This document shows, in pieces, positions 16,683 to 59,872 of a DNA stretch of 64,000 nucleotides. Each line of letters opens with the position of its first letter. Position 1 is the first letter of the stretch. Under the pieces are notes generated by a model. That model made no database searches and was not told the origin of the DNA. It saw only the letters and a program-made list of their open reading frames with translations. The translations under genes and the position numbers were made by a program. Source of the stretch: a virus (taxonomy: Duplodnaviria > Heunggongvirae > Uroviricota > Caudoviricetes); IMG/VR virus record IMGVR_UViG_3300035698_035307, positions 23,521-87,520 of that record. One strand, 5' to 3'.

Positions 16683-17006
16683 ATGACTAAGATAAAATTT
16701 AAAGTATTATCATTTGACGGATTTATCAGCGAAAGTTTATCTGGTTTAAAATCTGCGAAAGATAAGAAGAACAAAGCTGCTTCAAGAGCAGGTGATTTAG
16801 AAGGACGTTCTGAAAAGAACCAAGCTAAATATGTTTTCTATGATGACAAAGAGAAATATGAAAAGAAACATCTGAAACTTCAGAATGATATCAAAGCTGA
16901 AGATGATAAAGTACAAAAGGAAAAACTTAGAGCAGAACTTAATAATCTCAAAAAAGAATGGAAGACAGAGCAAGCGAAATACAAAAGCGCAATAAAAGCA
17001 ATGTAA
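16683..17006 (+). CDS. Basic coiled-coil protein with a capsid-targeting-like leader
   Basis: 107 aa with KVLSFDGFISE; plus-strand AATATATAAATA at 16648-16659. Confidence 0.7.
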   Translation: MTKIKFKVLSFDGFISESLSGLKSAKDKKNKAASRAGDLEGRSEKNQAKYVFYDDKEKYEKKHLKLQNDIKAEDDKVQKEKLRAELNNLKKEWKTEQAKYKSAIKAM

Positions 17007-19981: not shown

Positions 19982-20688
19982 TTTTTTTTATCCTCATCTT
20001 CCTCAGCTTCTTCAGCTGCGGCAGCTTCTTCTTCTTCCTTAAGTTTCTTAGCTTCTGCTTCTTCCTCTAATTTCTTAGATTCTTCAAGTTCTTCTTCTTT
20101 CTTCTTAGCTTCTGCTTCTTCTTCCTCTAATTTCTTAGATTCTTCAAGTTCTTCTTCTTTCTTCTTAGCTTCTGCTTCTTCTTCTTCCTTAAGTTTCTTA
20201 GCTTCTGCTACTTTTTTAGCTTCTAAAGTTTCTTCGTCTTCTTCTTCGTCATCATCATCTGACTTAGTTGCTGCAGCTTTTTCTTCTTCTTCTTTCTTCG
20301 CAGCTGCTTCTTTTTCTTCTTTCTCTTTATCAGCTTCTTCGCCAGATTTTTCAGAACCTTCTTCTTCGTCGTCATCGCCTTTTTTCTTTTCGGCATCTTC
20401 TTCCTCATCAGATTCTTCTTCTTCGTGCTCATCGCCTTCTTCACCTTCTTCTTCCATTTGGCCTACAAATTCTTCAAAAGACATTATCTTATTAAATTCG
20501 TTAAGACTAATTACAGTGTCTGCAGTTTTGTGTGCTACATAAAGTTCAAAGATTTCTTCATTCATATGCTGAACATATAATGATTCTTCTATATTACTTT
20601 CATTCAATGATTTGAACTCATCAAATACTGGTGATTTATTTTCTTTAATACAATTATCGATATAACTGTCAAGTACTTTAATTTCCAT
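19975..20688 (-). CDS. Highly acidic prohead core/scaffold-like protein
   Basis: E/K low-complexity repeats and LNE/IEE sites; lies just downstream of the major capsid gene. ATG 20688 is 24 nt below a GATATATA motif (the track start is a TTG). Confidence 0.7.
   Translation of the reverse strand: MEIKVLDSYIDNCIKENKSPVFDEFKSLNESNIEESLYVQHMNEEIFELYVAHKTADTVISLNEFNKIMSFEEFVGQMEEEGEEGDEHEEEESDEEEDAEKKKGDDDEEEGSEKSGEEADKEKEEKEAAAKKEEEEKAAATKSDDDDEEEDEETLEAKKVAEAKKLKEEEEAEAKKKEEELEESKKLEEEEAEAKKKEEELEESKKLEEEAEAKKLKEEEEAAAAEEAEEDEDKKKV
20038..20200. repeat. Tandem ~60-bp coding repeats (EAKKKEEELEESKKLEEE)
   Basis: Two near-identical copies are flanked by two EAKKLKEEEE units. Confidence 0.85.
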
Positions 20689-22663: not shown

Positions 22664-24493
22664 TTAATATTTACCATTCATTCTTTTAACAGATTGGATT
22701 ATATATTGCGCTTTCGATTCGTCAATTGCGGTATTTTCAACTTTCGCTGTAGTTTTACTTTCATTAACTTTCTCAATTACAATAGAAACATCTCTTAAAT
22801 CTCTTGTTTGCCAGAAATTATCAATCTGGTACTGAGTGTCTAATTTTGAGTATTTCGATTCGGCTATAATCTGATTCTTTTTAGCTTCGCTTAATTTATC
22901 CCATGTTTCACGGTATTCTGTTCCCATGTCTCTGATAAATCCAAGACCATCATTCTTTTCCTCTGGCTTAATTGCCGTTTCATAAATCTGTTCTACTTGT
23001 TCTTTATTAAAGTAGTTCTTGCCTTCAAACGCCTTTACAACGACGGTTTGTTTTTCTGCATCAAGTGCATAAAATCCGTCTTGCTTCTCTTTTGGTAAAA
23101 ATTGCATGAAATGCATTGTACCTTCTACTGTTTGCTTCTTAGCAGATTCGAGAATCATATTTAATTTTTCTGAAATTTCTTCTTTATAATCTTTTGGTTT
23201 AGTTTCCACTTTTGTATCGTTTGTGTTCGTATTAGTATTCGCATTCTCTTCAACATGAACTGCTGCAGATTTGTTTACGAATTTGTTGAATTTTTCTCCA
23301 ACTGTATTTGAATAGTTACCAACGTTCTCAAGATTACCTTTAAGGTATTCGGTATAGTTAACGTGCTTGTTAAAACCTTCACCTAAATAGTTTGTATATT
23401 TAGCTAAATCATTTGAACTTTCACCTATATATTTTGAGTATTCTTTTATTTGGTTTGCTCCAGTTGCTACGTGCTCAATATACTTAATTGCTTTTTCTAA
23501 TTCTGCACCTTGATACTCACCAAAGTTAATACCTTGATTAGTCTTTTCTGCAACGTGGTTTAAATGTTTTACTACGGTTTCTAATGTTTCGCTTAAGTAA
23601 TTGCTAAATTCTACAGATTTGTTAGCACCTTCGCCAACATGTCCTGAATAATCTTTAACTTTATTTAAACCTTCAGTAAGATAATTGTTATGACTAACTA
23701 ATTTATCTACGTTACCACCGATATAGTTAACATATTCAAATAATTGATTAACCTTCTGTGCTATTGCTTCAGAATATTCAATACCTGATTCTGTTTTGGT
23801 TTCTTTCAGTGCACCTTTTAAACCAGTGATTTCTTCTGAAATATATTTTGACCATTTTTCAAAATCCGGAGTTGAAACAAATTTATTATCTTCCATGTTC
23901 TCAGGGTTATTTTCTTTAATATATGTATCGCGGAAAAAGTCTTCTGGTACTTCAAAAACATGAACGTTATCATCATTTGTAAAACCGTACTGCTCATTCA
24001 CTCTTTTCAGCTGTGCATTTGCAAATCCAGGGTCAGCAACTAAGTCATAAGTAAATAATTTCTTAATTCTAACGTGTCCATTAGATTCTACAACACCTGC
24101 TGCTCTAGATGAGATATGAAGTGGTACGCCACCTTCTGCAAGTGCTTGGGCTTCTTTACCATGTGTAGTATCCAGTAATCTGATTCTTCCTAATACTTGT
24201 TTAGATTCTTTATCGTATTCTAGTTTCTCTATAACGTGTGAAGCTTTTGATAAAGAAACGTCAAAGTTTTGTGGATGGTCTAATTCACCTAATAATGTTC
24301 CAGCGCCAATTTTCTCTTGTAAGCCTTCAATCTGTGGTAAATATTCTGATTCATCATATATTCTTCCGTTCTTATTCTTGACTCCTATTTCGCCAAAAAT
24401 ACCTTCAAACACATAATTACCATTTTCATCCTTCTGTACCTGTACAGCAGGAGCTGTCTCTAAAATTAGAAGGTGTTTTAATTGTTCTGACAT
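22664..24493 (-). CDS. gp21: Prohead protease fused to a scaffold-like coiled coil
   Basis: The first ~170 aa carry NKNGRIY, GELDHP, SHVI, ISSRAAG and DLVADPG. The remainder is a 14-residue-periodic helical region. Confidence 0.9.
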   Translation of the reverse strand: MSEQLKHLLILETAPAVQVQKDENGNYVFEGIFGEIGVKNKNGRIYDESEYLPQIEGLQEKIGAGTLLGELDHPQNFDVSLSKASHVIEKLEYDKESKQVLGRIRLLDTTHGKEAQALAEGGVPLHISSRAAGVVESNGHVRIKKLFTYDLVADPGFANAQLKRVNEQYGFTNDDNVHVFEVPEDFFRDTYIKENNPENMEDNKFVSTPDFEKWSKYISEEITGLKGALKETKTESGIEYSEAIAQKVNQLFEYVNYIGGNVDKLVSHNNYLTEGLNKVKDYSGHVGEGANKSVEFSNYLSETLETVVKHLNHVAEKTNQGINFGEYQGAELEKAIKYIEHVATGANQIKEYSKYIGESSNDLAKYTNYLGEGFNKHVNYTEYLKGNLENVGNYSNTVGEKFNKFVNKSAAVHVEENANTNTNTNDTKVETKPKDYKEEISEKLNMILESAKKQTVEGTMHFMQFLPKEKQDGFYALDAEKQTVVVKAFEGKNYFNKEQVEQIYETAIKPEEKNDGLGFIRDMGTEYRETWDKLSEAKKNQIIAESKYSKLDTQYQIDNFWQTRDLRDVSIVIEKVNESKTTAKVENTAIDESKAQYIIQSVKRMNGKY

Positions 24494-26177: not shown

Positions 26178-27341
26178 TTAGAAAAGTTTTTTAAAGTTCT
26201 CAGCTTCAAGTTCATTCTTTTTGTCACCAACTGCTTTACCTTTAATACCATATTCTTTCATTACTTCATTTCCTTTAACTGTAGGCTTGAATTTTAAGAA
26301 TGCTTTAACCATCTTTAGATTCATATTATTCCATTTTGCAAAGGTCATTAAATCTTGTGGGCCGATTTTGTTAACACCTGCCTGCGCAATCTTCCACTTG
26401 TTCTCAACAGCTAGGACTGTCTCTGGTGTCAGGTTCATAAACTCCTTAAGGAATATAATATCTCGAGTCTCATCTGCACCATACTTATGCTTTGTCATCT
26501 TCTTTATCAGATTATCATCATTCATTCTAACTAACTGAGCAAGATTGATAATCCACTTGTTTGAATTAACAAAATTGAAGTCAATATCATACCCTGGTAA
26601 TATCATTGGGAAGAATCCATAGTCTTTTAATAATCGAAGTGGGTGTGTAGTATCTTTAGCCTTAGAAATAGTTTTCTTAAACTCATCACGAATCCTTTCA
26701 GGAGAAACTCCATCTAAACTATTGTCAGCCTTTAGAGCTGATTCAATTGCCTTATCTGGTTTAGAACCAGCAACACCGGCAAATCTAATTGCTCTTAGTT
26801 TTCTAAGTGGGTCTTCATCGAATCTAGCTTTTGCATCTCCAACAGTTCTGATTTTATTATTCTCTAAATCTTTTACACCGCCGACAAGGTCTACGATTTC
26901 TTGAGTTTCAATATCATAGAACAAAGCGTTAATAGTTAAGTCTCTTCTTAAAACATCTTTATCGATTGTAGAATACTTAACGCCACCATCTGGTCTACGA
27001 CCTTTACCTAAATCTTCTCTGAATGTTGCAATCTCAAATGGTTCGCCATTGATTATTGCAATTGTCACACCTAAATCTTTAGATTTTCCACCGTCTATAG
27101 TTTTGTACTTACCTGCAATTATCTTATCTACTTGAGCAGGTGTTGCATCAGTAGCTACATCATAGTCTTTAGGTTTCTTACCTAATAAAGCATCACGAAC
27201 TGCTCCACCTACTACGTATAATTTGAATCCACTTTTCTTGAATAATTTATGAAGTTCCATCACTTCACTAGGTAAATTCAATTTGAATTTCTGTGCTGCT
27301 TCTATAAGCAGATTATATTCTTTAAATCCTTTTACTTTCAT
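26178..27341 (-). CDS. cca: CCA-adding enzyme / poly(A) polymerase family nucleotidyltransferase (class II)
   Basis: VGGAVRD, DYDVAT, EIATFR, RRDLTINAL, RFDEDPLRKLRAIRF and SPERIRDE motifs. No HD motif seen. Confidence 0.9.
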   Translation of the reverse strand: MKVKGFKEYNLLIEAAQKFKLNLPSEVMELHKLFKKSGFKLYVVGGAVRDALLGKKPKDYDVATDATPAQVDKIIAGKYKTIDGGKSKDLGVTIAIINGEPFEIATFREDLGKGRRPDGGVKYSTIDKDVLRRDLTINALFYDIETQEIVDLVGGVKDLENNKIRTVGDAKARFDEDPLRKLRAIRFAGVAGSKPDKAIESALKADNSLDGVSPERIRDEFKKTISKAKDTTHPLRLLKDYGFFPMILPGYDIDFNFVNSNKWIINLAQLVRMNDDNLIKKMTKHKYGADETRDIIFLKEFMNLTPETVLAVENKWKIAQAGVNKIGPQDLMTFAKWNNMNLKMVKAFLKFKPTVKGNEVMKEYGIKGKAVGDKKNELEAENFKKLF

Positions 27342-35247: not shown

Positions 35248-36603
35248 TTAATTTTGATTGCTACCATCATATTCATCACTCTCGCCGCTACCTGCAGCTC
35301 CACTCCATTCTTCAGTTGATTCAGTGAGTCTCATAAATTCGTAGTTAATTGTTAACTTAAATCTCATATTTTTACCTTCGCCATCTCTAATCTTTAGGAT
35401 TTTAAGCCAATACTCAGGTGGGTCAGATTCATACATTATCTTATCTTGAATAATTGCATACATCATATCTGCAGTATGTGATAGACCAGCTGATTCAGCA
35501 ATATTGTTCATTGTTATTTCAGTTGAATCATAACCATCTCTATTAATCTGAGTTGCAGTAATGATAAGCCAATCATTTCTAATTGCCATCGCTCTAAGGT
35601 CTTCAGCTATTTGCTTCACCTTCATGTAAGTATTATCACTATTAGGGTTTCTATAATTAGCTAAGATGTTAATGTAGTCAATTACTACTACTTGCATCTT
35701 AATACCCTTAACTTCTTCAAGTTCTTTTAAATATGCTTCGATATCTAAAACTGAAAATTGTGATGTTGGTACATGTTTAATAAATAATTGTCCAGGAGGT
35801 AATAAACCTTCTGACATTCTATCTAATTTTCTCTTAATGAGATTCTTGTCTCTTGCTTTCTTTGCATACTCAGACATTCCAATATTAAGAGCATTAGAAC
35901 CAATACGTTTCACAAATTTATGTGCACCCATTTCTGCAGAAATTACTGCAGTGTTGTGACCTCTTTTTACGAAGTTCACGGCATCATTTGCTAGGAAGAT
36001 AGATTTACCAATGTTTTGTTCACCAGCATATACAACTAATGATTGTTTATCATATCCACCATGTGTTACTGCATCAACGGCATTGTAACCTGTCGTAATC
36101 TTTTGTTCTTGTTTCTGGTCGTGACAAGCTGGGTCAAAAAAGTCTAAACCTAAATCTGTATTAAAGTTTAAATTATTTCTCTCATTTATTAATGTCTTAA
36201 CCTTGTTGATAATAGTATCAACGTTGTCTGGAGTAACTTTGTTCGTTTGAACATACTCCATTGTATCTAAGAGTGTTGTATCAAATGTCCTCCACTTAAT
36301 CCAAGCTTCTGCAGTAGTTTCTAACCATTCTGCATCGTATTCTTTTAAATTTACATCGTAAATAGCTGTTACTAAATCCTTTGAAATACCAGTTTGCTTT
36401 GCAGCCTTTGAATGGTCTATCAAAAGTTTCATTTGTTCAGCTGATGGTGTTTCTTTAAATTTTACGTAAAACTTATTTGCCAACGTTGAAAGAACATCAA
36501 TCTCTTTACTGGTATAATAATCTTTACCAATCTTGCTTAAGTATTTTGGTTTACTTAAACAGAGATTGAAAAAGGTCTTTTCGTAGTCTGCGTTAAAGTT
36601 CAT
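35248..36603 (-). CDS. gp41: Replicative DnaB-like helicase
   Basis: AGEQNIGKS, VVIDYINI, TATQINR and AESAG motifs. Confidence 0.93.
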   Translation of the reverse strand: MNFNADYEKTFFNLCLSKPKYLSKIGKDYYTSKEIDVLSTLANKFYVKFKETPSAEQMKLLIDHSKAAKQTGISKDLVTAIYDVNLKEYDAEWLETTAEAWIKWRTFDTTLLDTMEYVQTNKVTPDNVDTIINKVKTLINERNNLNFNTDLGLDFFDPACHDQKQEQKITTGYNAVDAVTHGGYDKQSLVVYAGEQNIGKSIFLANDAVNFVKRGHNTAVISAEMGAHKFVKRIGSNALNIGMSEYAKKARDKNLIKRKLDRMSEGLLPPGQLFIKHVPTSQFSVLDIEAYLKELEEVKGIKMQVVVIDYINILANYRNPNSDNTYMKVKQIAEDLRAMAIRNDWLIITATQINRDGYDSTEITMNNIAESAGLSHTADMMYAIIQDKIMYESDPPEYWLKILKIRDGEGKNMRFKLTINYEFMRLTESTEEWSGAAGSGESDEYDGSNQN

Positions 36604-37132
36604 CTTTAGTTATCTTTTTAAAATCCTTTATCCAATAAAATTGTTTCATACCAGAATTATCTGCAAATCCTTTATCAGTCTCTCTATCTCCAACCATTAT
36701 CGAGTCTTTAATATTGATACCTAATTCAGATGCTGCTTTTAAAGCCATACCTGGATTTGGTTTTCTCATCTGGTCTCCAGCTGCATTTGTCTTGCTAAAA
36801 TATATTTTCTCGAAGTTAACACCTTCTTTCTTTGCAGCTTTCGTAATGTTTGCAAATTTTTCAATTATATCCTTTAAGCTTATGTAGCCTGCTGCAATGC
36901 TACCTTGGTTGCTTGCACCTATGATTTTATATCCAGCTTCTTGAAAAAGTTTAATTTTATTCAAAACACCTGGAATAAAAGCCCAGTCATCTTTGTCTTG
37001 CGGAAATGTACCCTTAGTCTTAGGTTTGATGACGGTATGGTCTAAATCTAAAAAAAGGCCAGCAGGTTTTTCCTCTTGACCTTCTTTAATAAATTGACCA
37101 AATGTTTTTATAAATAGTTTATCTTGTGCCAT
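36593..37132 (-). CDS. HAD class IIIA phosphatase (GmhB / polynucleotide 3'-phosphatase-like)
   Basis: FLDLDHT, ASNQG, RKPNPGM and VGDRETD motifs; leader FIKTFGQFIKE. Confidence 0.85.
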   Translation of the reverse strand: MAQDKLFIKTFGQFIKEGQEEKPAGLFLDLDHTVIKPKTKGTFPQDKDDWAFIPGVLNKIKLFQEAGYKIIGASNQGSIAAGYISLKDIIEKFANITKAAKKEGVNFEKIYFSKTNAAGDQMRKPNPGMALKAASELGINIKDSIMVGDRETDKGFADNSGMKQFYWIKDFKKITKDEL

Positions 37133-46449: not shown

Positions 46450-46473
46450 AAAAGCGAACTACAGTTCGCTTTT
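46450..46473 (-). terminator. Terminator overlapping the stop of the last accessory-block gene
   Basis: 10-bp stem AAAAGCGAAC/GTTCGCTTTT. Confidence 0.7.
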
Positions 46474-46713
46474 CTTTTTCTTTTTCTTCTTCTTTTTCTT
46501 CTTGACAGGTTCCTCTTCAGGAGGAATATACATTGGGCTGTCACCTGAACCAGGTTTCTGTAATGAAAGTGGACCATCTGGAGCACCAGGCAATGAAACT
46601 TTACCCATGCCAGGTACTGTCATACCAGGATTAAGACTTGCACCACCTACAACATCTTCATTTGCAAATTCTTCAAATGTGAATAACTTAAAGGTTGGTT
46701 TAGTGTCTTTCAT
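46459..46713 (-). CDS. Small protein: capsid-targeting-like leader, major-capsid N-arm copy and poly-Lys tail
   Basis: FTFEEFANE; LNPGMTVPGMGKVSLPGAP...GSGD; K10 run. Confidence 0.75.
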   Translation of the reverse strand: MKDTKPTFKLFTFEEFANEDVVGGASLNPGMTVPGMGKVSLPGAPDGPLSLQKPGSGDSPMYIPPEEEPVKKKKKKKKKKKSEL

Positions 46714-46714
46714 A

Positions 46715-47776
46715 CTATAAGCCTTTCATTTCATCTGCTAATTCCTTAGCATTTTCTTTAGCTACTTTTGGGTCATATTTACCAGCATGTCTACTTTTCA
46801 TATACTTCATTAAATCGCTAGCTTTCATTTTACCAGACTCAGCCATTGCTTGACGGATATCATCTTCTGACATTTCGTATTCTTTCGCTTCATTAACTTT
46901 TCTACTTCTAGCTTTCCATATTCTACTACCAGTTTCTGAAAGTGCTACCATACCACCTTTAACTTTGAATAAGCTTGAATTATTTCTAACCCATCTTTTT
47001 GAAAGATTAAATTCTGCTACGATTTTATCAAATTCTACTTGACTCATTTTCTTATCAGCCATAACTTCTAGAATCTTATCTCTTACTCTACCATGAAGAC
47101 CTGCTGATTTTGAAGGGTGATTCTCAGTATACTGCCTCTTGTATTGTACCTTCTTAGCTTCGTTCAAATCTTCTACACTACTGTTAGCTAGAGATTCTAA
47201 TTTAAGTTTCTTTCTTGCAATTTCATAATCTGCACCAGTTATTATGGCTTCTTCGTCATCAAATTCATCAGCTATTAAATCACGTAATTCATCGTCTGTT
47301 TCAATACCTAAAGATTTTGCACGCTTCATAAGCTTTTTGAACTGAGGAGTTGTGCCTTCATTAATACATTCTTCTAAATATTCAAAAGAACCTAAATCAG
47401 CTTCTTTGATAGTCAATGCATTTACTAAATGTCCTTTAAAGTATTTTGAAAAGAAAGCTTTGTTTTCCTTTGGCATTGGTTCTGGCATTGTATCATCGCC
47501 ATCTATAACTTCTTCGCCAGGTGGCCTATGGTCAATCATGATATCAATAATGTCCTCTTCATCCATATCTATAACATAAACATCTTTAGCTTTATATTTT
47601 ACTGAATCTCCTTCAGAATTAAGCTCAATTGCTAATTTGTCACCTTTTACAAAATCTACTTTACCAGCGTATTTCCAATCAGTAGTAACCACCATTCGCC
47701 ATCTTAAAAAATTATAATCTTTAGCTTCATTTAAAGACTCTTTAAAGTCTTCGAATAACATTACGTGTTGTTTCAT
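46715..47776 (-). CDS. Multi-module probable head protein with a C-terminal YqeY-like helical domain
   Basis: Leader MLFEDFKESLNE; internal INE/LNE/VNE sites; C-terminal MSEDDIRQAM...DLMKYMKSRHAGKYDPK. Confidence 0.65.
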   Translation of the reverse strand: MKQHVMLFEDFKESLNEAKDYNFLRWRMVVTTDWKYAGKVDFVKGDKLAIELNSEGDSVKYKAKDVYVIDMDEEDIIDIMIDHRPPGEEVIDGDDTMPEPMPKENKAFFSKYFKGHLVNALTIKEADLGSFEYLEECINEGTTPQFKKLMKRAKSLGIETDDELRDLIADEFDDEEAIITGADYEIARKKLKLESLANSSVEDLNEAKKVQYKRQYTENHPSKSAGLHGRVRDKILEVMADKKMSQVEFDKIVAEFNLSKRWVRNNSSLFKVKGGMVALSETGSRIWKARSRKVNEAKEYEMSEDDIRQAMAESGKMKASDLMKYMKSRHAGKYDPKVAKENAKELADEMKGL

Positions 47777-47791
47777 ATTATTGAGTTTATT

Positions 47792-50700
47792 TTATGCTTT
47801 CTTAAATTTATTTATCTCCAAAGTTACGGTAGATATTCCTGATATGTTAGTTCTAATCATTAATACTACTTGGTAAACTTCATCTTTGAACTTAACTTTA
47901 TAATCAATGTTAAGTCCCTTTGCAGTATTCTTATCAATTATATTTATAAGTTTGTTATCATCTATGATTTCTACACCACTCTGAGCTGGGAATGCTTCAG
48001 GTTCATGAATAGCACCTTTACTGGCACCAATAAGTTTGAAGAACGTAGGGTTCTTACCTAAACTTAAACCGAAAGAAGCTATTGAAATAAAGATATTCTT
48101 TTCAGCAGTAGTGTTCTCTAGAAGATAATACATCATTTTTAAGGCAGCGTACTTCGCTCTTGTATAATCATATACTTTAGCTTTGTTATTCTTCTGGAAT
48201 GCATCCTTATCAACTGTATATGTAAAGTAGTCAGAGTGCTTCTTAACTTGAGATGCAATTTTATTTCTAAAATTACCAATCTCTTTATAGTACTGTGCAA
48301 TCTTAAGACTATCTTCTTTCTTTGTTAGGTTATATGAATCAAGTTCAGTACCTTCTCTTCTTTTCATTGACTTCAAGAATGATTTGGCTTTACCTGCTTG
48401 AGCATTTTGTTCTTTAAGTGATATTCCTAATATCTGGTTTGAAGTATCTCCCCATGTATTAACAAAAATACCATTGATGTAACCTAATGCAAGTTCTTCA
48501 TTTGGTTCAGCTAAAGCTTTTGCAGTTTCAGTGTTGATTGAACTTTCTGTTCCTGGCTTAACTAAGAATATGTCAGATGAGTTCCATTTGTCAGAATATA
48601 AACCTGATACTTTTGCACCAGCACTTTTTACTTTGTCAAATATCTTATCTCTTTCAATATTCCATTTGCTATATTTACTGTTAGCTAAATATTCACCAAT
48701 TGACATTGCATTGTTCAATGACTTTACAATTCCTGGTGAGAATGTTTCTTCTGAAGAAGCTAATGTTTTAATGTTGTCATCTAATACTTTCTTTGATGTA
48801 CCTTCAATTCCATTTGATTTAAGATTTTTAAGTATCTCAGCTATCTTTTCAATGTAATTTTCTTTATCAATTCTGCCATAACCTTTGTTCTTAAAGTAAT
48901 AGTTTACGAAACTCTCTTTAAAGTCAGTAGATGTCTTTGCTGAGTCTTGTGAACCACCTGCTAGAATCATATAAATCTCGTCATCATTTACTTCAAATTC
49001 AATTGTAGTAAACTTACCTGAGTAAGCTCCTCTCTTTGTTACACTTGAAGGTAAACCTGCGATGTTTGGTTTTTCACCTGGTTCAATAGTTGTAACTGGG
49101 CCAGTTAATGTATATTCAGAATGGCTTTCAATGAATGTATTTATATCTTCTGTAAATTCTTCTACACTAACCTTTGTTATATTATTCACTCTATCTTTAG
49201 CACTTGCTGAACTATACTTACTTGAATAGCTTGCAATGAACTGTTTAATAAATGTGTTTCTTGTTTGAGAGTTTAATGATTCATTTATTATCTCATCGTC
49301 TTTGGATTCGTTTATAAAATCATTGAATGATTTCACTTGGAATGAATTTGATTCTCCCACTTTTTGTAATATTTTTTGCATATCTTTATATAATGGCCAT
49401 ACCCCTTTAGGTGTCCATTTCTTAAAATCTTTATCGTTATCGTCTTTAATAGCTTCTCTTACTTTAGTGGCTGATATGTTTTCTCCACTTCGTTTGATTT
49501 CAAATGCATTGAAGTCATCACCTGCGTTTAATTCTGTTCTGTACTTATCAATCATCTTCTGATATTGAGCATATCTGTCAGTACCTGCTCCCCATAAAAC
49601 TGGTTCGTACTTTGGACGCATTAAATTGAATAATGTATCAGGTGCTGCGTTAGGTGTAATAAAAGCATCCTTTAAGAATTTATATTCTTTTTGCATTCCT
49701 TTAAACATCTTTAATTGCATCTTATCATCGAAAGGTCTTCTTTCTGGGTCTGGCTTTCCACCTCTTACAATCATTACAACTACAGGTAAACCGTTCTTCT
49801 TGTGAATAGTTTCAAGTACTTTAACATGACCTAATGTAAATGGTTGGAAACGACCTACAAACATATTCACCTTTTCTTTACCAGGTTCTTTATGGTCTAA
49901 TGTAAGTGCTTCAAATATTTGGCTCTCGAAAATATCATTCTCTTCTTCTTGGATTCTACTTGTTCTTAAGAACGACGCAAAATCTAATACTTCGTTTTCC
50001 ATTGGCATTGCGTTTGTTTTCTTTTGTATTGAAGCTACAATATCATTGATAATTTTGATCGATTCATCTGAAAGTAAATCAGTTGCATGTTTACGAGTTT
50101 TCTTAAAAGAACTTAGCATAATTTTAAAAAGGTCATGCATAGCAGGATTCTTAAGAATCTTCTTAGTCACTTCGTTATCTATAAATTCTGGGTTCAATTG
50201 GAATACATCTTGCTTTGCAAAATCAGGAGTCTGAAAGTCCATGCCAGCATATTTATAACCGTTCGTTGCTACATACTGATTAAATATTGTTGATATTAAA
50301 TTGATGTATCTTTGGTCAGCTGTTTCACCTTCAACTGAAACATCATTTATGTCTAATGAAGATAAGAACTCAATTATATCAAGCATGATTATTTGATATG
50401 TGTCGTTCGACTTTCTATCTTCTTTCTTTAAGTTTGTCTTTTGCATTTCTTGAAAAAGTGGGTCAATTACTTGTGCGTTATAAACTTTCTTACCATTTAT
50501 AAACTTAAACACAATACTCTCTACCATATTGTCTAGAGAATTATTTAGAGCAGTCTTCTTCAGATTTGGATTGAGAATACTTACAACATATCTGGTAAAA
50601 GATTGAGTCTTAAATAGTGATTCTAAATCTGCATATGATGTATTCAAATAATCTTTAATCTTTTGCTTCTGTTGTAAGTTTAATTTTCCTTGAAATATAA

Positions 50701-51160
50701 CAGCAGGGTCTTGAACATCAAATGTCTCAGCCCATTTTTCTAAGATTGTTGTATCACTTATCACTTTAACTACATTACCACCTTCATTTCTAATAAGAAT
50801 GTCTGTGATGATTAAATTATTATGAGGAACACTATCATAAGTTACTGTAACTGGCTTTGTGTTTGCAACATATTCAAAACAAAAGTCCCAAGCTTCGGGC
50901 ATGATGTTCTTAATATCTACTGACATTGAGTCAAAGAATGTAATTGGTCTTTCATAGTAAACCATAATAGTTCTGTCAATCAAATTAATAGGATTCTTAT
51001 CATTCCCCTTAAAGAAGATTAAATTATCTCCCTTTCGTTGAACTCTGAATCGACTACCATCAATCATCTCAGTTACTATTACGTATTGATTAAGAAGCTT
51101 TTCAATGAAAGACGCTCCTTTTTCTGCATATATGTCTTTAAATGTTGCTAAGTTAGCCAT
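47792..51160 (-). CDS. Three-domain protein: degenerate ligase-fold, HIGH-class nucleotidyltransferase and PD-(D/E)xK-like nuclease
   Basis: TEMIDGS (KxDG motif with K replaced by M), FVGRFQPFTLGH...ISATKVR, and DKWNSSDIFL...GISLK. Confidence 0.7.
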   Translation of the reverse strand: MANLATFKDIYAEKGASFIEKLLNQYVIVTEMIDGSRFRVQRKGDNLIFFKGNDKNPINLIDRTIMVYYERPITFFDSMSVDIKNIMPEAWDFCFEYVANTKPVTVTYDSVPHNNLIITDILIRNEGGNVVKVISDTTILEKWAETFDVQDPAVIFQGKLNLQQKQKIKDYLNTSYADLESLFKTQSFTRYVVSILNPNLKKTALNNSLDNMVESIVFKFINGKKVYNAQVIDPLFQEMQKTNLKKEDRKSNDTYQIIMLDIIEFLSSLDINDVSVEGETADQRYINLISTIFNQYVATNGYKYAGMDFQTPDFAKQDVFQLNPEFIDNEVTKKILKNPAMHDLFKIMLSSFKKTRKHATDLLSDESIKIINDIVASIQKKTNAMPMENEVLDFASFLRTSRIQEEENDIFESQIFEALTLDHKEPGKEKVNMFVGRFQPFTLGHVKVLETIHKKNGLPVVVMIVRGGKPDPERRPFDDKMQLKMFKGMQKEYKFLKDAFITPNAAPDTLFNLMRPKYEPVLWGAGTDRYAQYQKMIDKYRTELNAGDDFNAFEIKRSGENISATKVREAIKDDNDKDFKKWTPKGVWPLYKDMQKILQKVGESNSFQVKSFNDFINESKDDEIINESLNSQTRNTFIKQFIASYSSKYSSASAKDRVNNITKVSVEEFTEDINTFIESHSEYTLTGPVTTIEPGEKPNIAGLPSSVTKRGAYSGKFTTIEFEVNDDEIYMILAGGSQDSAKTSTDFKESFVNYYFKNKGYGRIDKENYIEKIAEILKNLKSNGIEGTSKKVLDDNIKTLASSEETFSPGIVKSLNNAMSIGEYLANSKYSKWNIERDKIFDKVKSAGAKVSGLYSDKWNSSDIFLVKPGTESSINTETAKALAEPNEELALGYINGIFVNTWGDTSNQILGISLKEQNAQAGKAKSFLKSMKRREGTELDSYNLTKKEDSLKIAQYYKEIGNFRNKIASQVKKHSDYFTYTVDKDAFQKNNKAKVYDYTRAKYAALKMMYYLLENTTAEKNIFISIASFGLSLGKNPTFFKLIGASKGAIHEPEAFPAQSGVEIIDDNKLINIIDKNTAKGLNIDYKVKFKDEVYQVVLMIRTNISGISTVTLEINKFKKA

Positions 51161-51166
51161 TGTTTT

Positions 51167-52183
51167 TTAATATTTTGGTGCTAATGATTGTTTATATTCC
51201 TTTGGGTAATCTTCCTTTAAAATATCAGAATACTCTTTTGCTATTAGTTCAATATTAGCTTTCACTTCTTTTGAAACGCTCTTACCGTAAAAATCTTCGT
51301 AGATTGCTTCATATGTTTTAACTAAATTGTTAGCTCCTAAGCCACTTCCAGTATTTATTTCAATTAGAGATAGCTTACCATCTTTCTTTAAAAAGAAGTC
51401 GAATGAATAAAAATCAAATGCATCAGGATTTACTTTCGTAAATAAGTCTGCTCTCATCTTCATTAATTCTTTAGCATAGCTAGATTTATCTACATCTTGT
51501 TCGATGTATGTAAACTTAACCTTCTCATCTGTACCCTTTGTTGAAATAGTTTTGTTCTCTGAAATAATAGGGATTCTCTCGTTTAATGTAACAAGTTTAT
51601 CTTTTAAAAATAATCCTCTGAACTCTCTATCAAAATCTACAAACTCACTAAATAAATCAAACTTATTTTTGCTCTTTTGTAAATCTTCTATAGTTTTAAA
51701 TACTTCTATTCCAACACCACTTTGACCAGCTGAAGGCTTTGCAACAACTGGAAATTCTATGTCTTTTGTATCTTCAATTGAAAATACAGTCTTAGGTACA
51801 TATTCAACGCCATCTAATATCTCATGGAATTTAACCTTCGAAGAAACTTCTTCCATTCTCTTATCTGGAGAATTATAAATCTTCGAATATGATATGCTCT
51901 TATTATGCTTGTTCTTTAATATCTTCATACCGTCTTCACTCATATTTGCATAATACAATACAGGTGATGTTTTATCAAGTTTATAGTTGTCATAATTTTC
52001 AGAACCTAAGATTTCCCTTATTACAGGAATATAATACTCTGATAAGGCATATTGATTTAATCCTATCAACTTAGTATTAGTCACAGTAGTCACAGTGTCC
52101 ATTAACTTTACGAATTGGATTTTATTAAGTTCCTTTTCAGCTTCAGTTAAATATTCGTTAAATGTCTGTAATTTGTAGTTCAT
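51167..52183 (-). CDS. ATP-grasp ligase (RimK-like)
   Basis: SKVKFHE, VPKT, PVVAKPSAGQSGVG, FSEFV...EFR, FDF and IEINTGSG motifs. Confidence 0.85.
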   Translation of the reverse strand: MNYKLQTFNEYLTEAEKELNKIQFVKLMDTVTTVTNTKLIGLNQYALSEYYIPVIREILGSENYDNYKLDKTSPVLYYANMSEDGMKILKNKHNKSISYSKIYNSPDKRMEEVSSKVKFHEILDGVEYVPKTVFSIEDTKDIEFPVVAKPSAGQSGVGIEVFKTIEDLQKSKNKFDLFSEFVDFDREFRGLFLKDKLVTLNERIPIISENKTISTKGTDEKVKFTYIEQDVDKSSYAKELMKMRADLFTKVNPDAFDFYSFDFFLKKDGKLSLIEINTGSGLGANNLVKTYEAIYEDFYGKSVSKEVKANIELIAKEYSDILKEDYPKEYKQSLAPKY

Positions 52184-52184
52184 C

Positions 52185-52400
52185 TTATAATTTCTTCTTT
52201 AAATCCTTAAGAGTTTTGATTTGGTCATTGATATATTCTTCAGCTTTGTCTGCATCTCCATCATCAACCCATTGTTGAATTGCATCTAATTCAGATTTGA
52301 TATTTTTAATCTTTATACTGAAATATCTAGAATCCATACCTTCGTTCACAGTATTCTCTTCTACTTTATGAAATTCTTCGAAGCTTTTAATGTTGTCCAT
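52185..52400 (-). CDS. Small probable internal head protein
   Basis: 71 aa with leader NIKSFEEFHKVEE. Confidence 0.7.
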   Translation of the reverse strand: MDNIKSFEEFHKVEENTVNEGMDSRYFSIKIKNIKSELDAIQQWVDDGDADKAEEYINDQIKTLKDLKKKL

Positions 52401-52409
52401 CTTTAATTC

Positions 52410-53723
52410 TTATTTTTGCATTGAGTACTTAAGCGTACCTAATATTTGATTAACACTTGCAAATGCACCTGTTAACTTGTATGTCTTACCATTATATTGA
52501 AATACTATTCCTTCTGTAGGTAAAATTGCATCAAAACCACCAATTGCTTGAAGTCTACTTAATTGATACTTCATCTTGTGCATCAATGTTAAATCACCAG
52601 ACTTCTCAATCTGCTTCTGTAAATCTTCTAATTGCTTCTTAATGTCTTGTACTACCTTATCTGGATTAGCTGCAAGATAACCTGTAGCGTTTTTAAGTAC
52701 TTCCACTCCTAATGATAAGAATAACTCTTCAATTGGTTGAATATAGTCTTTACCGACTTGTTTAAATTCTTTCTTTGCAAATCCTACAACCCACTTTAAG
52801 AATTTAGGTGATTCTTTAAAATCTTTCTTCATGTTACCTACTGAGTAGCCATTGTCATAAAATCCAAATCTCTTAATTAAAAGAGGTATTTTCTCTTCTG
52901 CAACTTCTACTTCTAAATCTAAAGATTGAGCTTTCTTCTCAAGGAATGATTCCCATTCTTTGTAAATGTAATCTCCAATAGTATCAGTAGCACTTAAGCT
53001 CCATTTCTTTTGAATTTTATCTACAATTTTCATGAATCTCGCTTGATTCTTCTCAAAGTCTATAACCTTAGGCATATCTATTACTGCAGGAGGTCTGATA
53101 ACATAATGTTTTTGTATATCACTATTAACTCCTTTAATAAGTTTCTGTAGCGTATTCGCAGCTTCCTTATCGTCTGAAACAGGGTTACCTTCTTCATCGT
53201 AAGTAGTTGCACTGTGGAATATTAAATGTGGAGCGTCATAGTTAATAACGTTTGTTGATGGCGGGTAAATTACCTCGAGATGCATGAACGCATACCCATC
53301 TTTAAAAATTAAATCTCTATCTTTCGCAGAGACTTTTGAAATAGCCGATTCTAAATCTTCTATAGCAAATGTAAAACCATCTGAAAGGTCTCCTCTGCCA
53401 GCAAATTTATCTATTACTTGTTGTACAGTCATTGCAGCTGCACCACCATTTTTACGGTCACCTTTGTTACGTGCTGCAACTAAGTGGCCATCTCTCCAAC
53501 TAATAGCAATTGCTTGCCCATCAAGTTTTTCAGTAGATTCGACTTCTTTGTTTAATTGACCTTGTAAAGCCTGGTCAATAATGTCTTTGATTTGTGTAAA
53601 TGTAAGTGATGTATCATCGTAAGGATGGCTCATGTGTCCAAAAGCCCCACCTTCTAAAATAAAATCAGCTACATCTACATTATAATTCTCATTGACATAC
53701 TCTGTGAATGATAATAGCTTCAT
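52410..53723 (-). CDS. RNA-ligase-like covalent nucleotidyltransferase
   Basis: Motif I TEKLDG (K66), IFMHLE (III), EGIVF (IV) and YKLTG (V); N-terminal GGAFGHMSHP. Confidence 0.7.
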   Translation of the reverse strand: MKLLSFTEYVNENYNVDVADFILEGGAFGHMSHPYDDTSLTFTQIKDIIDQALQGQLNKEVESTEKLDGQAIAISWRDGHLVAARNKGDRKNGGAAAMTVQQVIDKFAGRGDLSDGFTFAIEDLESAISKVSAKDRDLIFKDGYAFMHLEVIYPPSTNVINYDAPHLIFHSATTYDEEGNPVSDDKEAANTLQKLIKGVNSDIQKHYVIRPPAVIDMPKVIDFEKNQARFMKIVDKIQKKWSLSATDTIGDYIYKEWESFLEKKAQSLDLEVEVAEEKIPLLIKRFGFYDNGYSVGNMKKDFKESPKFLKWVVGFAKKEFKQVGKDYIQPIEELFLSLGVEVLKNATGYLAANPDKVVQDIKKQLEDLQKQIEKSGDLTLMHKMKYQLSRLQAIGGFDAILPTEGIVFQYNGKTYKLTGAFASVNQILGTLKYSMQK

Positions 53724-53728
53724 TTATA

Positions 53729-54340
53729 TTATGCTTTTTTTCCTTTACCTTTTGTCCAACCGTTCTTTACCTTTGTGAAAAATTCTTTCTTCTTTTCTTC
53801 ACTTAATTCTCCTTGACTTTTAACGCCAAATTCAGCAAGTAAAGCTGAGAAATATTCTTTGTATTCTTTCTGTAATGGAGAAAGTTCTACTTCTAAAAGA
53901 GATTCAATATCTTCTGATTCTTCTATAACTGATTCACCTAATGTAGATGATGCAGCTCCAACCATTGCACCCCAATCGTCTTTATGTTTTGAGATAAGAC
54001 CGTTAATTACTTTGTCTGCTTTGCTAGCATCAAATTCATCGCCAAAAGCTTTCTTATAAAGTGCATATACATACTCCTTAAAAGATTCTTTGTCTTTAAC
54101 ATCTGCTTCGTTTAAAGCTTCGCTAACGCCGTCACCTTCCCAAGTGTTAATTTCATTGTAAAATTTAGCTCTTTTTTCTTCGTCTAATTCAGCAGGTGTG
54201 CTTACACCGTATTCTTGTAACTTAGTTTTGAAAAATTCACCATATTGAGCTTGTTTAGCTGCTTTGTCTTCTTCTACTTTCTTCGTCTGTACTTCAGACA
54301 TAAAAGTTGTGAAAGATTGAAAAGATTTAATATGTTCCAT
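53729..54340 (-). CDS. Probable internal head protein with a duplicated helical module
   Basis: Leader HIKSFQSF; QYGEFFKTKLQEYGVSTPAELDEEKRAKFY is paralleled by EYKEYFSALLAEFGVKSQGELSEEKKKEFF. Confidence 0.7.
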   Translation of the reverse strand: MEHIKSFQSFTTFMSEVQTKKVEEDKAAKQAQYGEFFKTKLQEYGVSTPAELDEEKRAKFYNEINTWEGDGVSEALNEADVKDKESFKEYVYALYKKAFGDEFDASKADKVINGLISKHKDDWGAMVGAASSTLGESVIEESEDIESLLEVELSPLQKEYKEYFSALLAEFGVKSQGELSEEKKKEFFTKVKNGWTKGKGKKA

Positions 54341-54366
54341 ATTTTAAAGTTTATTTTTTTTATATA

Positions 54367-55866
54367 TCAAAATCTCACTACTTTAATGTCGTATGGAAAC
54401 TTCTGTTCTTTATAGATTCTTAATCTTTCCTTTGCATGTTTGAACAAATAGTTCTCATAGCCTTCATATCTAAAGTCATCAACGAAGTCAATGATTATAA
54501 GAAGTTCTTTACCTTCAAGCTTTCTTAAGCCTCTTCCAATACTTTGTCTAACAACTACATCAGACTTAAATGATTCAGTAAATAATACGTAGTGGATATT
54601 CTTAACAGATATACCAGTACTGAAAGTTCCAAAAGAAGCTACAAGAACTACATCTTCACCTGCTTCCATTTTAGCTTTGTAAACTTCTCTCATTTGTTTA
54701 TCAGTGTGACCATCTACATAATATACTTGCTTATCTGTATCGTTTCTTAGTTGGTTGTAAATAGCTGTACCATGTTCTCTCCTGTGGAAAAGCACCAGTG
54801 CGTTTTTATTTAACTTACCTATTAATTTGCAAATGAAATTTCTTCTACTTTCACTTTCAATGATATAATTTTGTTCAAGATTAAATACTTTCTTACCGTC
54901 CGTATTTGGGTCTTTCGCTAGACTCTTAAATGCATCTTTAGTTTTTTCATCAATGTAATCCATGTGAATAATCTTAGCTTTACATTTAGCGATGTAATCA
55001 TTCTTCTGTAAGAAGTTGGCTGTAATCTCAGACATTAATGGTCCAGTATGTGACATAAGTGTAAGTCTATCAAGAGTTCCCTTCTTAGGGATAGTTCCAG
55101 ACAGTCCAAAACAGTAATCATTCTTCTTGCAATTATCAAGAATGTCTTTAATTGATTTAGCTTTTACTTTATGAGTCTCATCTACCATTACTACATCAAA
55201 GTCATCGTAATATTCTTCCTTCTTTTTAACAAGTGATTGATATGTACCGATAACAAAGTCGCAGTCGTCTTTGATTTCTTGACCTGCATAAATTTGTTGT
55301 ACTTTATATTTTACTTTACCTCTATAATTGTATTCGGCAAAATCTTCAGTCCCTTGTATTACTAAACTTACGTTAGGTACAATAAGAAGGAATTTATTAG
55401 CCATACCATGTGCTTTAAGGTAAGCGAATATGATAAAAAGTATGAATGTTTTACCAGCTGAAGTAGCTAGTTCTGCCATACATCTTCTATATTTTATAAT
55501 TTTAAAGGCTGTTTCTAATTGATAAGGTCTTGGTTTAAGTGGATTGTCTGCAAAAAATATATCACACCAATTTTTGAACGATTCGTAAGTCAAACCATTA
55601 TTAAATATCGCACTTATATTCTTAAGCTGAATTGGATATTCATGTTCTTTCGCTATGTCATATACTTCGCGCCATAAACCTGACTGAACATATTTGTCAT
55701 GCTTAAAAAAGCTGAAGTAACCATCCCAAATCTTTTTCTTAACAAGTGGGTGAAACTTCCAGTTCTTTATTCTTTTCGTTAATGAAATATTAAGCTGGTC
55801 AATTTCAATTGAAGTTGCCTGCTCAAGAATAAGCCATCTTTTATCTTCTGATAAGTTAAATATCAT
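54367..55866 (-). CDS. uvsW: SF2 DNA helicase
   Basis: PRPYQ, ATSAGKT, DETH, GLSGT, GTFSTGI and QSIGRGLR motifs. Confidence 0.93.
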   Translation of the reverse strand: MIFNLSEDKRWLILEQATSIEIDQLNISLTKRIKNWKFHPLVKKKIWDGYFSFFKHDKYVQSGLWREVYDIAKEHEYPIQLKNISAIFNNGLTYESFKNWCDIFFADNPLKPRPYQLETAFKIIKYRRCMAELATSAGKTFILFIIFAYLKAHGMANKFLLIVPNVSLVIQGTEDFAEYNYRGKVKYKVQQIYAGQEIKDDCDFVIGTYQSLVKKKEEYYDDFDVVMVDETHKVKAKSIKDILDNCKKNDYCFGLSGTIPKKGTLDRLTLMSHTGPLMSEITANFLQKNDYIAKCKAKIIHMDYIDEKTKDAFKSLAKDPNTDGKKVFNLEQNYIIESESRRNFICKLIGKLNKNALVLFHRREHGTAIYNQLRNDTDKQVYYVDGHTDKQMREVYKAKMEAGEDVVLVASFGTFSTGISVKNIHYVLFTESFKSDVVVRQSIGRGLRKLEGKELLIIIDFVDDFRYEGYENYLFKHAKERLRIYKEQKFPYDIKVVRF

Positions 55867-59491: not shown

Positions 59492-59872
59492 TTAAATTTT
59501 TAACCTACTACCTAAAGCTGCACCTACTGCGGCACCTACTAAACGACTTGTAAGTAAATTATATAAGAATCCGTCTTTAATTCCTAAAACTTTAGCAATC
59601 AATTTACCAACTGTCTTACCTAATGCAAGTCCAGTAAGTCCACCTAACATAGTACCAAAGATACCTTCATTAGTTAATTCACTATTAAAATCATTAATAT
59701 CTTTAACTCCATCTAAATATTCTGCAACAAATTCGTCTAATGCAGAGTCTATCTTAGCTTCTTCATCTTCTGTTAACTCTTCCTTTAAGTTTTCATTAAG
59801 AGATTTTATTTCTTCTTCGGTAAAGTATTCGTTTTCTTGTAAATACTCTTTAAATGATTTTACTTGGTCCAT
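59492..59872 (-). CDS. Probable head protein with a glycine-zipper hydrophobic C-terminus
   Basis: Leader QVKSFKEYLQE; GxxxG repeats (GTMLGGLTGLALG, LVGAAVGAALG). Confidence 0.7.
   Translation of the reverse strand: MDQVKSFKEYLQENEYFTEEEIKSLNENLKEELTEDEEAKIDSALDEFVAEYLDGVKDINDFNSELTNEGIFGTMLGGLTGLALGKTVGKLIAKVLGIKDGFLYNLLTSRLVGAAVGAALGSRLKI

Follow-up and report, generated by a model that had tools for sequence, protein, structure and literature searches.

A block of seven genes at positions 46459-54340 of a 64,000-nucleotide stretch of phage DNA, called below the window, is probably a plastic locus of capsid-targeted cargo genes, a counterpart of the internal-protein genes of phage T4. The window covers bases 23521-87520 of the IMG/VR record IMGVR_UViG_3300035698_035307, which is 151.5 kb long and estimated to be 54% complete. 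Its G+C content is 33%, and the minus strand carries nearly all genes. The block consists of seven minus-strand open reading frames (ORFs) with intergenic gaps of just 1-15 nt, and is flanked on one side by genes of a UvsW-type helicase, a UvsY-like protein, a primase and a gp32-like single-stranded DNA-binding protein, and on the other side by those of a dUTPase, a split T4-type DNA polymerase, a ribonucleotide reductase and UvsX. Head genes are found in the same window, namely a T4-type portal (PF07230, Portal_T4), a gp21-family prohead protease of the S77 type and a gp23-type capsid protein (PF07068 Gp23), all recognized by the corresponding models; genes of the large terminase and the tail sheath were also detected. 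The virus is a huge phage and, by this gene content, a distant member of the T4 superfamily. The elements of the block are the following.

54361-54368, minus strand: late-promoter-like motif GATATATA(A), 21 nt 5' of the first ATG of the block
53729-54340, minus strand: g203 (203 aa), leader IKSFQSFTTFMSE; two copies of a helical motif of ~40 aa, phrog_28651 (E 4.5e-13, two stretches)
52410-53723, minus strand: g437 (437 aa), putative covalent nucleotidyltransferase, RNA-ligase-like; leader MKLLSFTEYVNE
52185-52400, minus strand: g71 (71 aa), small helical protein, leader variant IKSFEEFHKVEE; no informative family
51167-52183, minus strand: g338 (338 aa), ATP-grasp enzyme (R2K.2 / TTL / Ddl-like), leader LQTFNEYLTE
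47792-51160, minus strand: g1122 (1122 aa), fusion protein with the four parts that follow
49946-51160, minus strand: g1122 aa 1-405, Rnl2-like ligase domain, motif I Lys replaced by Met (TEMIDG)
49361-49888, minus strand: g1122 aa 425-600, HIGH-motif nucleotidyltransferase, NadM/NMNAT-like (GRFQPFTLGH ... ISATKVR)
49307-49336, minus strand: g1122 aa 609-618, internal leader copy VKSFNDFINE, a perfect pattern match
47795-49300, minus strand: g1122 aa 621-1122, conserved viral protein with a fold like that of HaeIII-family restriction endonucleases (REases) in the last ~375 aa
46715-47776, minus strand: g353 (353 aa), leader variant MLFEDFKESLNE; phrog_1460 (YqeY-like), E 4e-4 over 46 residues
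46459-46713, minus strand: g84 (84 aa), leader FTFEEFANE, then a copy of the mature capsid N-arm, then a K11 tail
46450-46473, minus strand: intrinsic-terminator-like hairpin of 12 bp, whose loop contains the g84 stop codon, followed by a U-run (dG -14.3 kcal/mol, z -4.0)

It is a reasonable reading of this arrangement that the block forms one late-type transcription unit. The GATATATA motif occurs 13 times in the window versus 5.4 expected; 12 of the 13 copies lie on the coding strand, and 9-10 of them are situated 20-40 nt before the ATGs of sheath, tail, core-like, protease and portal genes. Within 46.4-54.4 kb there is a single copy, at 54361. The original prediction, made from the sequence of this DNA, that seven contiguous genes run from one GATATATAA motif to one terminator was borne out by the single motif copy and the strong hairpin. 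Its claim of late expression gains plausibility from the promoter-like motif, which the block has in common with structural genes (tail, portal, protease and core). The canonical T4 late promoter TATAAATA was also considered and rejected, as its 10 coding-strand copies do not stand systematically 5' of genes. The eleven lysines at the end of g84 are specified by an A-rich AAG/AAA run (window 46468-46503, minus strand) that is at the same time the 5' arm of the terminator hairpin; this run could be slippage-prone or vary in length.

All seven products begin with F-x-x-[FYI]-Phi-x-E or a variant of it. The strict pattern [FY]-x-x-[FYI]-Phi-x-E, sought in the first 20 residues, was found in g203, g437, g338 and at the N-terminus of g1122, each time within the first 16 residues, and the leaders of g71, g353 and g84 are close variants. 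Among the 152 putative genes of the record, it occupies 9 of 3040 positions in the first 20 residues versus 22 of 45440 elsewhere (Fisher p 8e-5, odds ratio 6.1). According to our own arithmetic, with about 16 of the 152 genes carrying the motif, seven consecutive carriers would arise by chance in about 2 per 100,000 genomes of this size. A repeat at the DNA level was rejected as the source of the leader, the copies having 55% nucleotide identity and variable codons; since the codons differ between the copies, it is apparently the peptide that is under selection rather than a DNA repeat. The capsid-targeting sequence (CTS) of T4 is MKTYQEFIAE (PMC8442874), in which residues 4 and 7 were connected by mutational work with targeting and residues 8 and 10 with processing (PMC9026906). 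The spacing of the leaders is that of the T4 sequence, with aromatic, aromatic, aliphatic and Glu residues at i, i+3, i+4 and i+6; hydrophobic residues occupy the positions equivalent to T4 4 and 7, and Phi-x-E those equivalent to 8-10, in strict form in four proteins and in variant form in three.

The same motif was found in proteins of the head, which makes several of its internal matches informative; two of these proteins are encoded outside the block.

22664-24493, minus strand: prohead protease (Peptidase_S77, T4 gp21 family; PF03420, 41.6 bits vs a cut-off of 27) fused to a scaffold-like part
19975-20688, minus strand: very acidic poly-E/D/K core-like protein, directly downstream of the capsid gene, with VFDEFKSLNE and MSFEEFVGQME internally

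The scaffold-like C-terminal part of the protease gene contains three [FY]-x-x-Y-[LI]-x-E copies (aa 296, 352 and 366), which suggests that the cargo leader imitates a motif by which the scaffold associates with itself. The acidic protein, with two or three leader-like motifs inside its chain, possibly corresponds to gp67 and gp68 of the T4 core. The product of g84, regarded in the original prediction as a capsid mimic, indeed carries an N-arm copy: it matches aa 43-91 of the major capsid protein with E 1e-10, and in both proteins the alignment begins at the E-D junction of the predicted cleavage site. Together with g203 and g71, g84 is more probably a head-core or DNA-associated component than an enzyme.

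Other phage lineages use other leaders in comparable places. In the 425-kb relative L007, about 10 genes of the locus start with a leader of that lineage's own, [ST]-L-[DE]-[EQ]-[FY]-[IV]-x-E. In most of 85 loci with the g437-type ligase, this enzyme forms the C-terminal module of proteins of 600-1846 aa, in which AAA_33/Zeta-type P-loop kinase, PF01467 and PolyA_pol head domains stand ahead of the ligase; a terminase gene is nearby in 55 of the 85 loci and a prohead protease gene in 25. The pattern M-[ILVM]-[KRS]-L-x-x-[ILMV]-[LMIV]-x-E starts 30 of 910 ORFs in these other lineages, compared with 7 matches at internal positions in 261,748 residues. Among the 30 carriers of such MIKLKNILNE-type leaders there are three standalone ligases, whose conserved domain begins directly after the Glu. 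More generally, Phi-x-x-Phi-Phi-x-E stands at the very start of 24 of 53 complete ligase-domain proteins versus 4.8% at an internal control position. One enzyme family thus appears to wear whichever leader its phage lineage uses, as is predicted for a loading signal matched to the scaffold and the protease of that lineage. The packaging-like nature of the leader, proposed originally, was strengthened by these lineage-specific leaders, by the T4-type head genes and by the motif in scaffold and core proteins. It was also observed that in many of the loci L013-L090 (IMG/VR, mostly short contigs) the giant ligase-ending genes have directly downstream of them a small gene and the genes of the large terminase, the portal and the prohead protease, and that small ORFs located downstream begin with MIKLKNILNE-type leaders.

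The position of the block is conserved to a greater degree than its content. The gene order UvsY-UvsW-[leader genes]-dUTPase-polymerase was found again in LR756500 (462 kb), in L007 (an IMG/VR genome) and in four shorter contigs; the loci with this order are L004, L005, L006, L007/8, L011 and L012. The ligase is kept in all of them, and the Rnl2-like domain in all that reach far enough. The HIGH transferase is fused behind the Rnl2-like domain in the window, L004, L005, L011 and L012, and ahead of the ligase in L007 and in the Microcystis phage Mel-JY01, where this fusion is encoded near the terminase, so that the ligase, the HIGH transferase and the Rnl2-like domain are apparently joined by a Rosetta-stone link. 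The ATP-grasp gene was found in L007/L008 only, the nuclease-fold part is fused only in L012, and for g71 and g353 there are no clear counterparts in L012, the closest relative. No match to cultured phages was obtained by megablast of the block. Conservation of the neighbourhood, suggested earlier as a check, was confirmed for the locus and its three-part enzyme core, but the ATP-grasp gene, g71, g353 and the nuclease part vary. From these comparisons, the block looks like a conserved core set among exchangeable cargo genes and not like a fixed system of seven genes.

One member of this core is g437, the RNA-ligase-like enzyme. In a 31-member alignment, K66-x-D68-G69 (motif I), E150 (III), E404-G405 (IV) and K416 (V) are invariant, and the family has its own invariant GHMxHP motif. 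Residues 1-29 are disordered in the AlphaFold2 (AF2) model, whose pLDDT is 84.9, and the fold is split by a helical insert of ~190 aa between motifs IIIa and IV. The best structure match obtained with VIA-align is Naegleria Rnl5 (6vtd; Z 8.1, root-mean-square deviation 6.2, 207 aligned), followed by T4 Rnl1 (5tt6, Z 7.3), Trl1 (6.9), REL1 (6.8) and Rnl2 (6.5). Z is near 5 for DNA ligases and capping enzymes, and ligases make up nearly all of the top 35 rows. Neither the Rnl1 (PF09511) nor the Rnl2 (PF09414) model matched g437 at E <= 0.1, with only a sub-threshold match to PF01653 (LigA-type) at motif I, and in the absence of a Pfam RNA-ligase score g437 is assigned to a separate family. DUF6267 (PF19782) was not listed by hmmscan for g437, yet 23-44% of the members of the nearest Atlas clusters carry it. 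The family comprises >697 homologues at E <= 1e-5, many of them 40-57% identical, in at least 584 IMG/VR loci. The invariant motifs, the AF2 model and the RNA-ligase structure matches agree with the earlier claim of an intact KxDG ligase-fold enzyme, and g437 can be regarded as a predicted adenylyltransferase of a large, unnamed, RNA-ligase-like family. A search of the PDB with phmmer gave no useful match for g437, g1122, g353 or g338.

The fusion protein g1122 contains the two other parts of the core. For its aa 1-405, Atlas features point to PF09414 clusters (0.93-0.94), and the homologues P0272 and P0274 carry PF09414. The motif I Lys is kept in 19 of 25 relatives of this domain and is M, Q or N in the subclade of the window, so the domain is probably ligase-like without being a competent self-adenylylating ligase. 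Profile-profile comparison of the g437 and g1122 ligase-like families was not significant (probability 4.7%, motif I region only), and their common fold rests on Atlas features and Pfam matches of relatives, not on direct alignment. In aa 425-600, PF01467 was matched with 40.5 bits vs 21 (3.8e-10) and TIGR00125 with 35.7 vs 27.7 bits; GRFQPFTLGH and ISATKVR are invariant in the alignment of HIGH transferases and come closest to the motifs of NadM-type nicotinamide mononucleotide adenylyltransferase (NMNAT). The NMNAT equivalogs TIGR01527 and NF002243 were not reached by this domain (22.4 vs 181 and 23 vs 127 bits), and at best it would work like NMNAT, not being a member by score. The internal leader at aa 609-618 apparently marks the junction of two formerly separate genes; the relatives in L004, L005 and L011 end just before its position. 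A complex prediction for g437 aa 40-437 with g1122 aa 1-600 gave a score of 0.00, which is evidence neither way.

The C-terminal part of g1122 has 146 representative homologues, mostly standalone proteins of ~500 aa. Its AF2 model (pLDDT 85.7) matched an AFDB cluster of the HaeIII family REase with E 1.5e-4 and a TM by hit of 0.44, and a second REase AFDB cluster with E 8e-3. The residues D237, D243, S294 and K296 are invariant (D243 ... S294-x-K296); there was no Pfam match and no PDB match by Foldseek. Of the ligase, nucleotidyltransferase and nuclease parts originally ascribed to this protein, the HIGH transferase is confirmed, the ligase-like domain (lacking the motif I Lys) is supported by its homology, and the nuclease is supported at fold level only. 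A Pol-beta-nucleotidyltransferase-like domain in the first 120 residues of the C-terminal part (Z 7.2, 92 aligned in the VIA wide search) was rejected for want of conserved catalytic residues. Relatives of the nuclease-fold protein in another phage group (P0002, P0003 and others) start with MSFYPRL-x-E, which is repeated as DFYPRLFEKF at an internal fusion junction in that group and may represent a third leader type.

The remaining proteins of the block are understood to different degrees. In g338, PF18299 was matched above its gathering threshold (29.0 bits vs 26.2), as were PF07478 and PF03133 above theirs, and the ATP-grasp assignment made earlier is correct in this respect; an orthologue with its own leader is present in L007/L008. 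In the 425-kb relative, a leaderless gene of the alanine-dehydrogenase/PNT family (L007:7188-8348, plus strand) overlaps the end of the leader-bearing ATP-grasp gene, which hints at an amino-acid-related substrate for the ATP-grasp enzyme. The description of g203 as a helical repeat protein agrees with phrog_28651 over two stretches; its relatives occur in 10 loci, in some of which they adjoin prohead protease genes. The YqeY-like reading of g353 gained nothing beyond its weak, single PHROG match, as nothing was found for this protein in Pfam, NCBIfam or PDB.

Further enzymes that are probably connected with RNA ends are encoded elsewhere in the genome, some with the leader and some without it.

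36593-37132, minus strand: PNK3P-type polynucleotide 3'-phosphatase, leader IKTFGQFIKE; PF08645, 2.4e-19
26178-27341, minus strand: CCA-adding / poly(A)-polymerase-family enzyme adjoining the portal gene, leader variant VKGFKEYNLLIE; PF01743, 8e-34
L009:611-1195 and L009:1208-1753 (genome 13610-14752, outside the window), minus strand: 2H phosphoesterase and phosphoribosyltransferase (PRTase)-like protein, adjacent leader-bearing genes
L010:4908-5960 and L091:1405-1836, minus strand: leaderless RNA-repair set at the genome end, Rnl2 with a C-terminal domain (PF09414, PF18043) and a 143-aa P-loop kinase

The 2H phosphoesterase scores above the cut-offs of both PF13563 (2'-5' RNA ligase family) and the anti-CBASS protein Acb1 (PF23474); the match of the PRTase-like protein is weak (E 1e-3). 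Tagged and untagged repair enzymes seem to be kept side by side in this phage, and since the RNA-repair cluster at the genome end is leaderless, the motif is not a general feature of such enzymes. Tpt1/KptA (PF01885) was not found in the genome record, which is 54% complete, and the 2'-phosphate pathway of the Trl1 type is therefore unsupported. PADLOC gave no meaningful match.

These data can be combined into the following scheme. Transcription of the seven genes would take place late and would run in a single unit from the GATATATAA motif up to the hairpin, as the sharing of this motif with structural genes implies. The amphipathic N-terminal leader F-x-x-[FY]-Phi-x-E would then dock each product onto the scaffold core during prohead assembly; we infer such docking because the spacing is identical to that of the T4 CTS and the motif is repeated in the scaffold and in the acidic core protein. 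The S77 gp21-type protease would remove the leader after the Glu of Phi-x-E and would also cut g1122 at its internal leader. The mature proteins would stay beside the DNA inside the head and, on ejection, pass into the next host. Their enzymatic core would consist of a new RNA-ligase-like adenylyltransferase, the NadM-like HIGH transferase and the Rnl2-like domain without the catalytic Lys, and exchangeable effectors would be added to it in the form of the ATP-grasp enzyme and the nuclease-fold protein. The job of the core might be the healing and sealing of broken RNA (tRNA) ends on entry, perhaps with a local supply of nicotinamide adenine dinucleotide (NAD) or nucleotides. RNA end repair is taken as its most likely task because the 3'-phosphatase, CCA-adding and 2H/Acb1-like enzymes are leader-tagged and the ligase is elsewhere fused with kinase and CCA-type modules; signalling nucleotides are a further possible target of this enzyme set.

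A broader proposal is put forward here tentatively, and we hold it to be possible rather than probable: a wide range of phages with T4-type heads, almost all of them uncultivated, may load an RNA end-healing and end-sealing kit by means of lineage-specific CTS-like leaders and inject it with their DNA. This kit might comprise the new RNA-ligase family and the NadM-like transferase along with kinase, 3'-phosphatase, 2H and CCA-adding modules, a composition that is equally tentative. It could conceivably counter tRNA-cleaving or NAD/nucleotide-based abortive-infection defences before phage gene expression, and this part of the proposal too should be read as a doubtful one. The original idea of counter-defence or RNA repair at injection fits the leader-tagged PNK3P, CCA-adding and 2H/Acb1-like enzymes; its single complex is not supported, and injection itself is presumed.

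A number of observations weigh against the cargo interpretation. A cultured phage closely related to this one and having a proteome was not found, tblastn returning 3 phage records only. Co-conservation is confined to the ligase, the HIGH transferase and the second ligase domain, and the one co-packaged seven-part complex of the original prediction is not supported, as these three travel together and the others come and go. Three of the seven leaders (g71, g353 and g84) are variants only, and the N-terminus of g1122 is conserved family-wide across several lineages, so it may belong to the domain rather than being a lineage-specific leader. The earlier statement that every gene product carries the leader or a variant therefore holds for four strict and three variant cases with one extra internal copy, the N-terminus of g1122 being the doubtful one. 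The structure matches of g437 are middling (Z about 8; Foldseek E 0.02-0.5), for which reason its class assignment rests on motifs. Moreover, its family is unusually conserved (40-57% identity, hundreds of phages), unlike fast-evolving anti-defence cargo, and some of its members are without any leader. Finally, the block is situated within a replication module, between UvsW on one side and the dUTPase and split polymerase on the other, which would suit ordinary cytoplasmic nucleic-acid enzymes.

The conservation of the ligase family, its leaderless members and the position of the block speak in favour of the view that the block encodes just such late or middle cytoplasmic enzymes, the motif serving for docking to a repair or replication complex, as a folding or translation-start feature, or as a degradation tag; the RNA-repair enzymes of T4 itself are made in the cell and not packaged. 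We nevertheless consider this unlikely. The motif has the T4 CTS spacing, ends in a gp21-type site and recurs in scaffold and core-like head proteins; it also heads the capsid N-arm copy, and the operon has the promoter motif of structural genes. In other phages the same family adjoins terminase, portal and protease with a lineage-own 10-residue leader, and the RNA-repair cluster of this very genome is devoid of it. If the proteins are loaded, they could still act in the head or during assembly, by sealing or trimming DNA ends, by neutralizing DNA charge or as scaffold and core parts that are degraded and expelled. The structural rather than enzymatic appearance of g84 (N-arm copy and K11), g203 and g71 is in line with this, as are the relatives of g203 among head genes of other lineages and the T4 core proteins gp67 and gp68, which are processed and largely lost (PMC5694885). 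The enzymes, however, are large and intact and need ATP or NTP, absent from a sealed head, and the set of 3'-phosphatase, CCA-adding, 2H/Acb1-like and RNA-ligase-like proteins fits host RNA or signal nucleotides, not virion DNA; in T4, the CTS cargo Alt and IPI acts after ejection (PMC3012670; PMC5512222). A function confined to the head or to assembly seems quite improbable to us.

The core could also be mainly a device for NAD supply, in which the NadM-like transferase and the leader-tagged PRTase-like protein remake NAD+ and RNA repair is secondary. The GRFQPF-x-x-GH motif and the best sub-threshold NCBIfam matches point to an archaeal-type NMNAT, JGI names one homologue NMN adenylyltransferase, the ligase shows weak LigA-type motif I matches, and NAD salvage is a known theme in phages (PMC7824862). 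The NMNAT equivalog scores are far below the cut-off (22 bits vs 181), no Nampt-type partner was seen, Tpt1 was not found in the 54% complete genome record and the PRTase match is weak (E 1e-3); in our opinion, there is very little chance that this explanation is the right one. Scarcely any more credit can be given to the purposes which such a supply would serve, that is, to beat NAD-depleting defences or to feed a NAD-using ligase.

The preferred reading, that of head-loaded cargo delivered to the host, can be compared with several known systems. The internal proteins of T4 (IPI, IPII and IPIII), Alt and the capsid-targeting sequence of this phage were reportedly treated by Mullaney and Black in 1996. 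To our knowledge, RNA-ligase-like, HIGH nucleotidyltransferase, ATP-grasp and nuclease-fold families have never been reported as T4 cargo, and here the cargo would be mostly large enzymes. The T4 proteins begin with a short leader in which the equivalents of 4, 7 and 8 are hydrophobic and 10 is Glu (PMC9026906, PMC3012670), as is the case here; a gp21-family protease, T4-type head genes and the clustering of cargo genes in a variable locus are common to both, and one finds among the T4 cargo an enzyme (Alt) as well as an anti-restriction protein (IPI). In contrast to T4, the leader here is F/Y-rich and 12-19 residues long, and one putative cargo is a fusion with an internal leader. Polyvalent proteins of phages and conjugative elements, with several unrelated enzymatic domains per polypeptide, also adjoin virion genes, and their injection has been predicted (Iyer et al. 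2017, PMC5512222); injected multi-domain effectors are an established concept (PMC5512222). With three or four modules g1122 resembles them, as do the 600-1846-aa ligase-ending proteins next to terminase, portal and protease. The domain set differs, however, comprising a DUF6267-like ligase, a NadM-like nucleotidyltransferase, an AAA_33 kinase and a CCA-type domain, and delivery is proposed to proceed via a CTS-like leader and protease sites, not via MuF or portal fusion.

As to RNA repair, the best structure matches of g437 (Rnl5, Rnl1 and Trl1-LIG) bring it close to T4 Pnkp-Rnl1 and to fungal and plant Trl1, a ligase-kinase-cyclic phosphodiesterase protein. Like these, g437 is tied to a P-loop kinase, a 3'-phosphatase, a 2H phosphoesterase and a CCA-adding enzyme through neighbours, fusions or shared tags. 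It is distinguished from them by the lack of a Pfam RNA-ligase score, the helical insert, the extra GHMxHP motif and the link with a HIGH nucleotidyltransferase. We know of no RNA-repair pathway that includes a HIGH nucleotidyltransferase. RNA-repair enzymes of such kinds are known in jumbo phages (PMC7824862). For the R2K.2 ATP-grasp family of Burroughs et al. (2015), to which g338 belongs by its PF18299 score, a role in phage-host conflicts has been predicted, namely the ligation of amino acids or peptides to proteins (PMC4431377); the capsid-targeting-like leader of g338 sets it apart. In the Dar system of phage P1 (DarB and partners; PMC9024508), enzymes are likewise packaged in the head by an N-terminal signal and protect the infection on entry, although the signal, the head type and the enzyme activities are unrelated. 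No publication was found in which these enzyme families are connected with a capsid-targeting leader or in which the ligase family is described.

If the leader does serve for loading, it could be predicted from sequence alone which proteins many uncultivated phages carry as cargo, and the three small internal proteins of T4 would be a minimal form of a larger, enzyme-rich delivery strategy. The leader could also serve as a tag for loading foreign proteins into heads of non-coli phages. A very abundant unnamed RNA-ligase-like family with a constant HIGH nucleotidyltransferase partner is a concrete target for biochemistry.

Two small leader-bearing ORFs of the window lie outside the block. The product of the ORF at 59492-59872 (minus strand) has a C-terminal hydrophobic segment resembling a glycine zipper, and that at 16683-17006 (plus strand) is among the few plus-strand ORFs.

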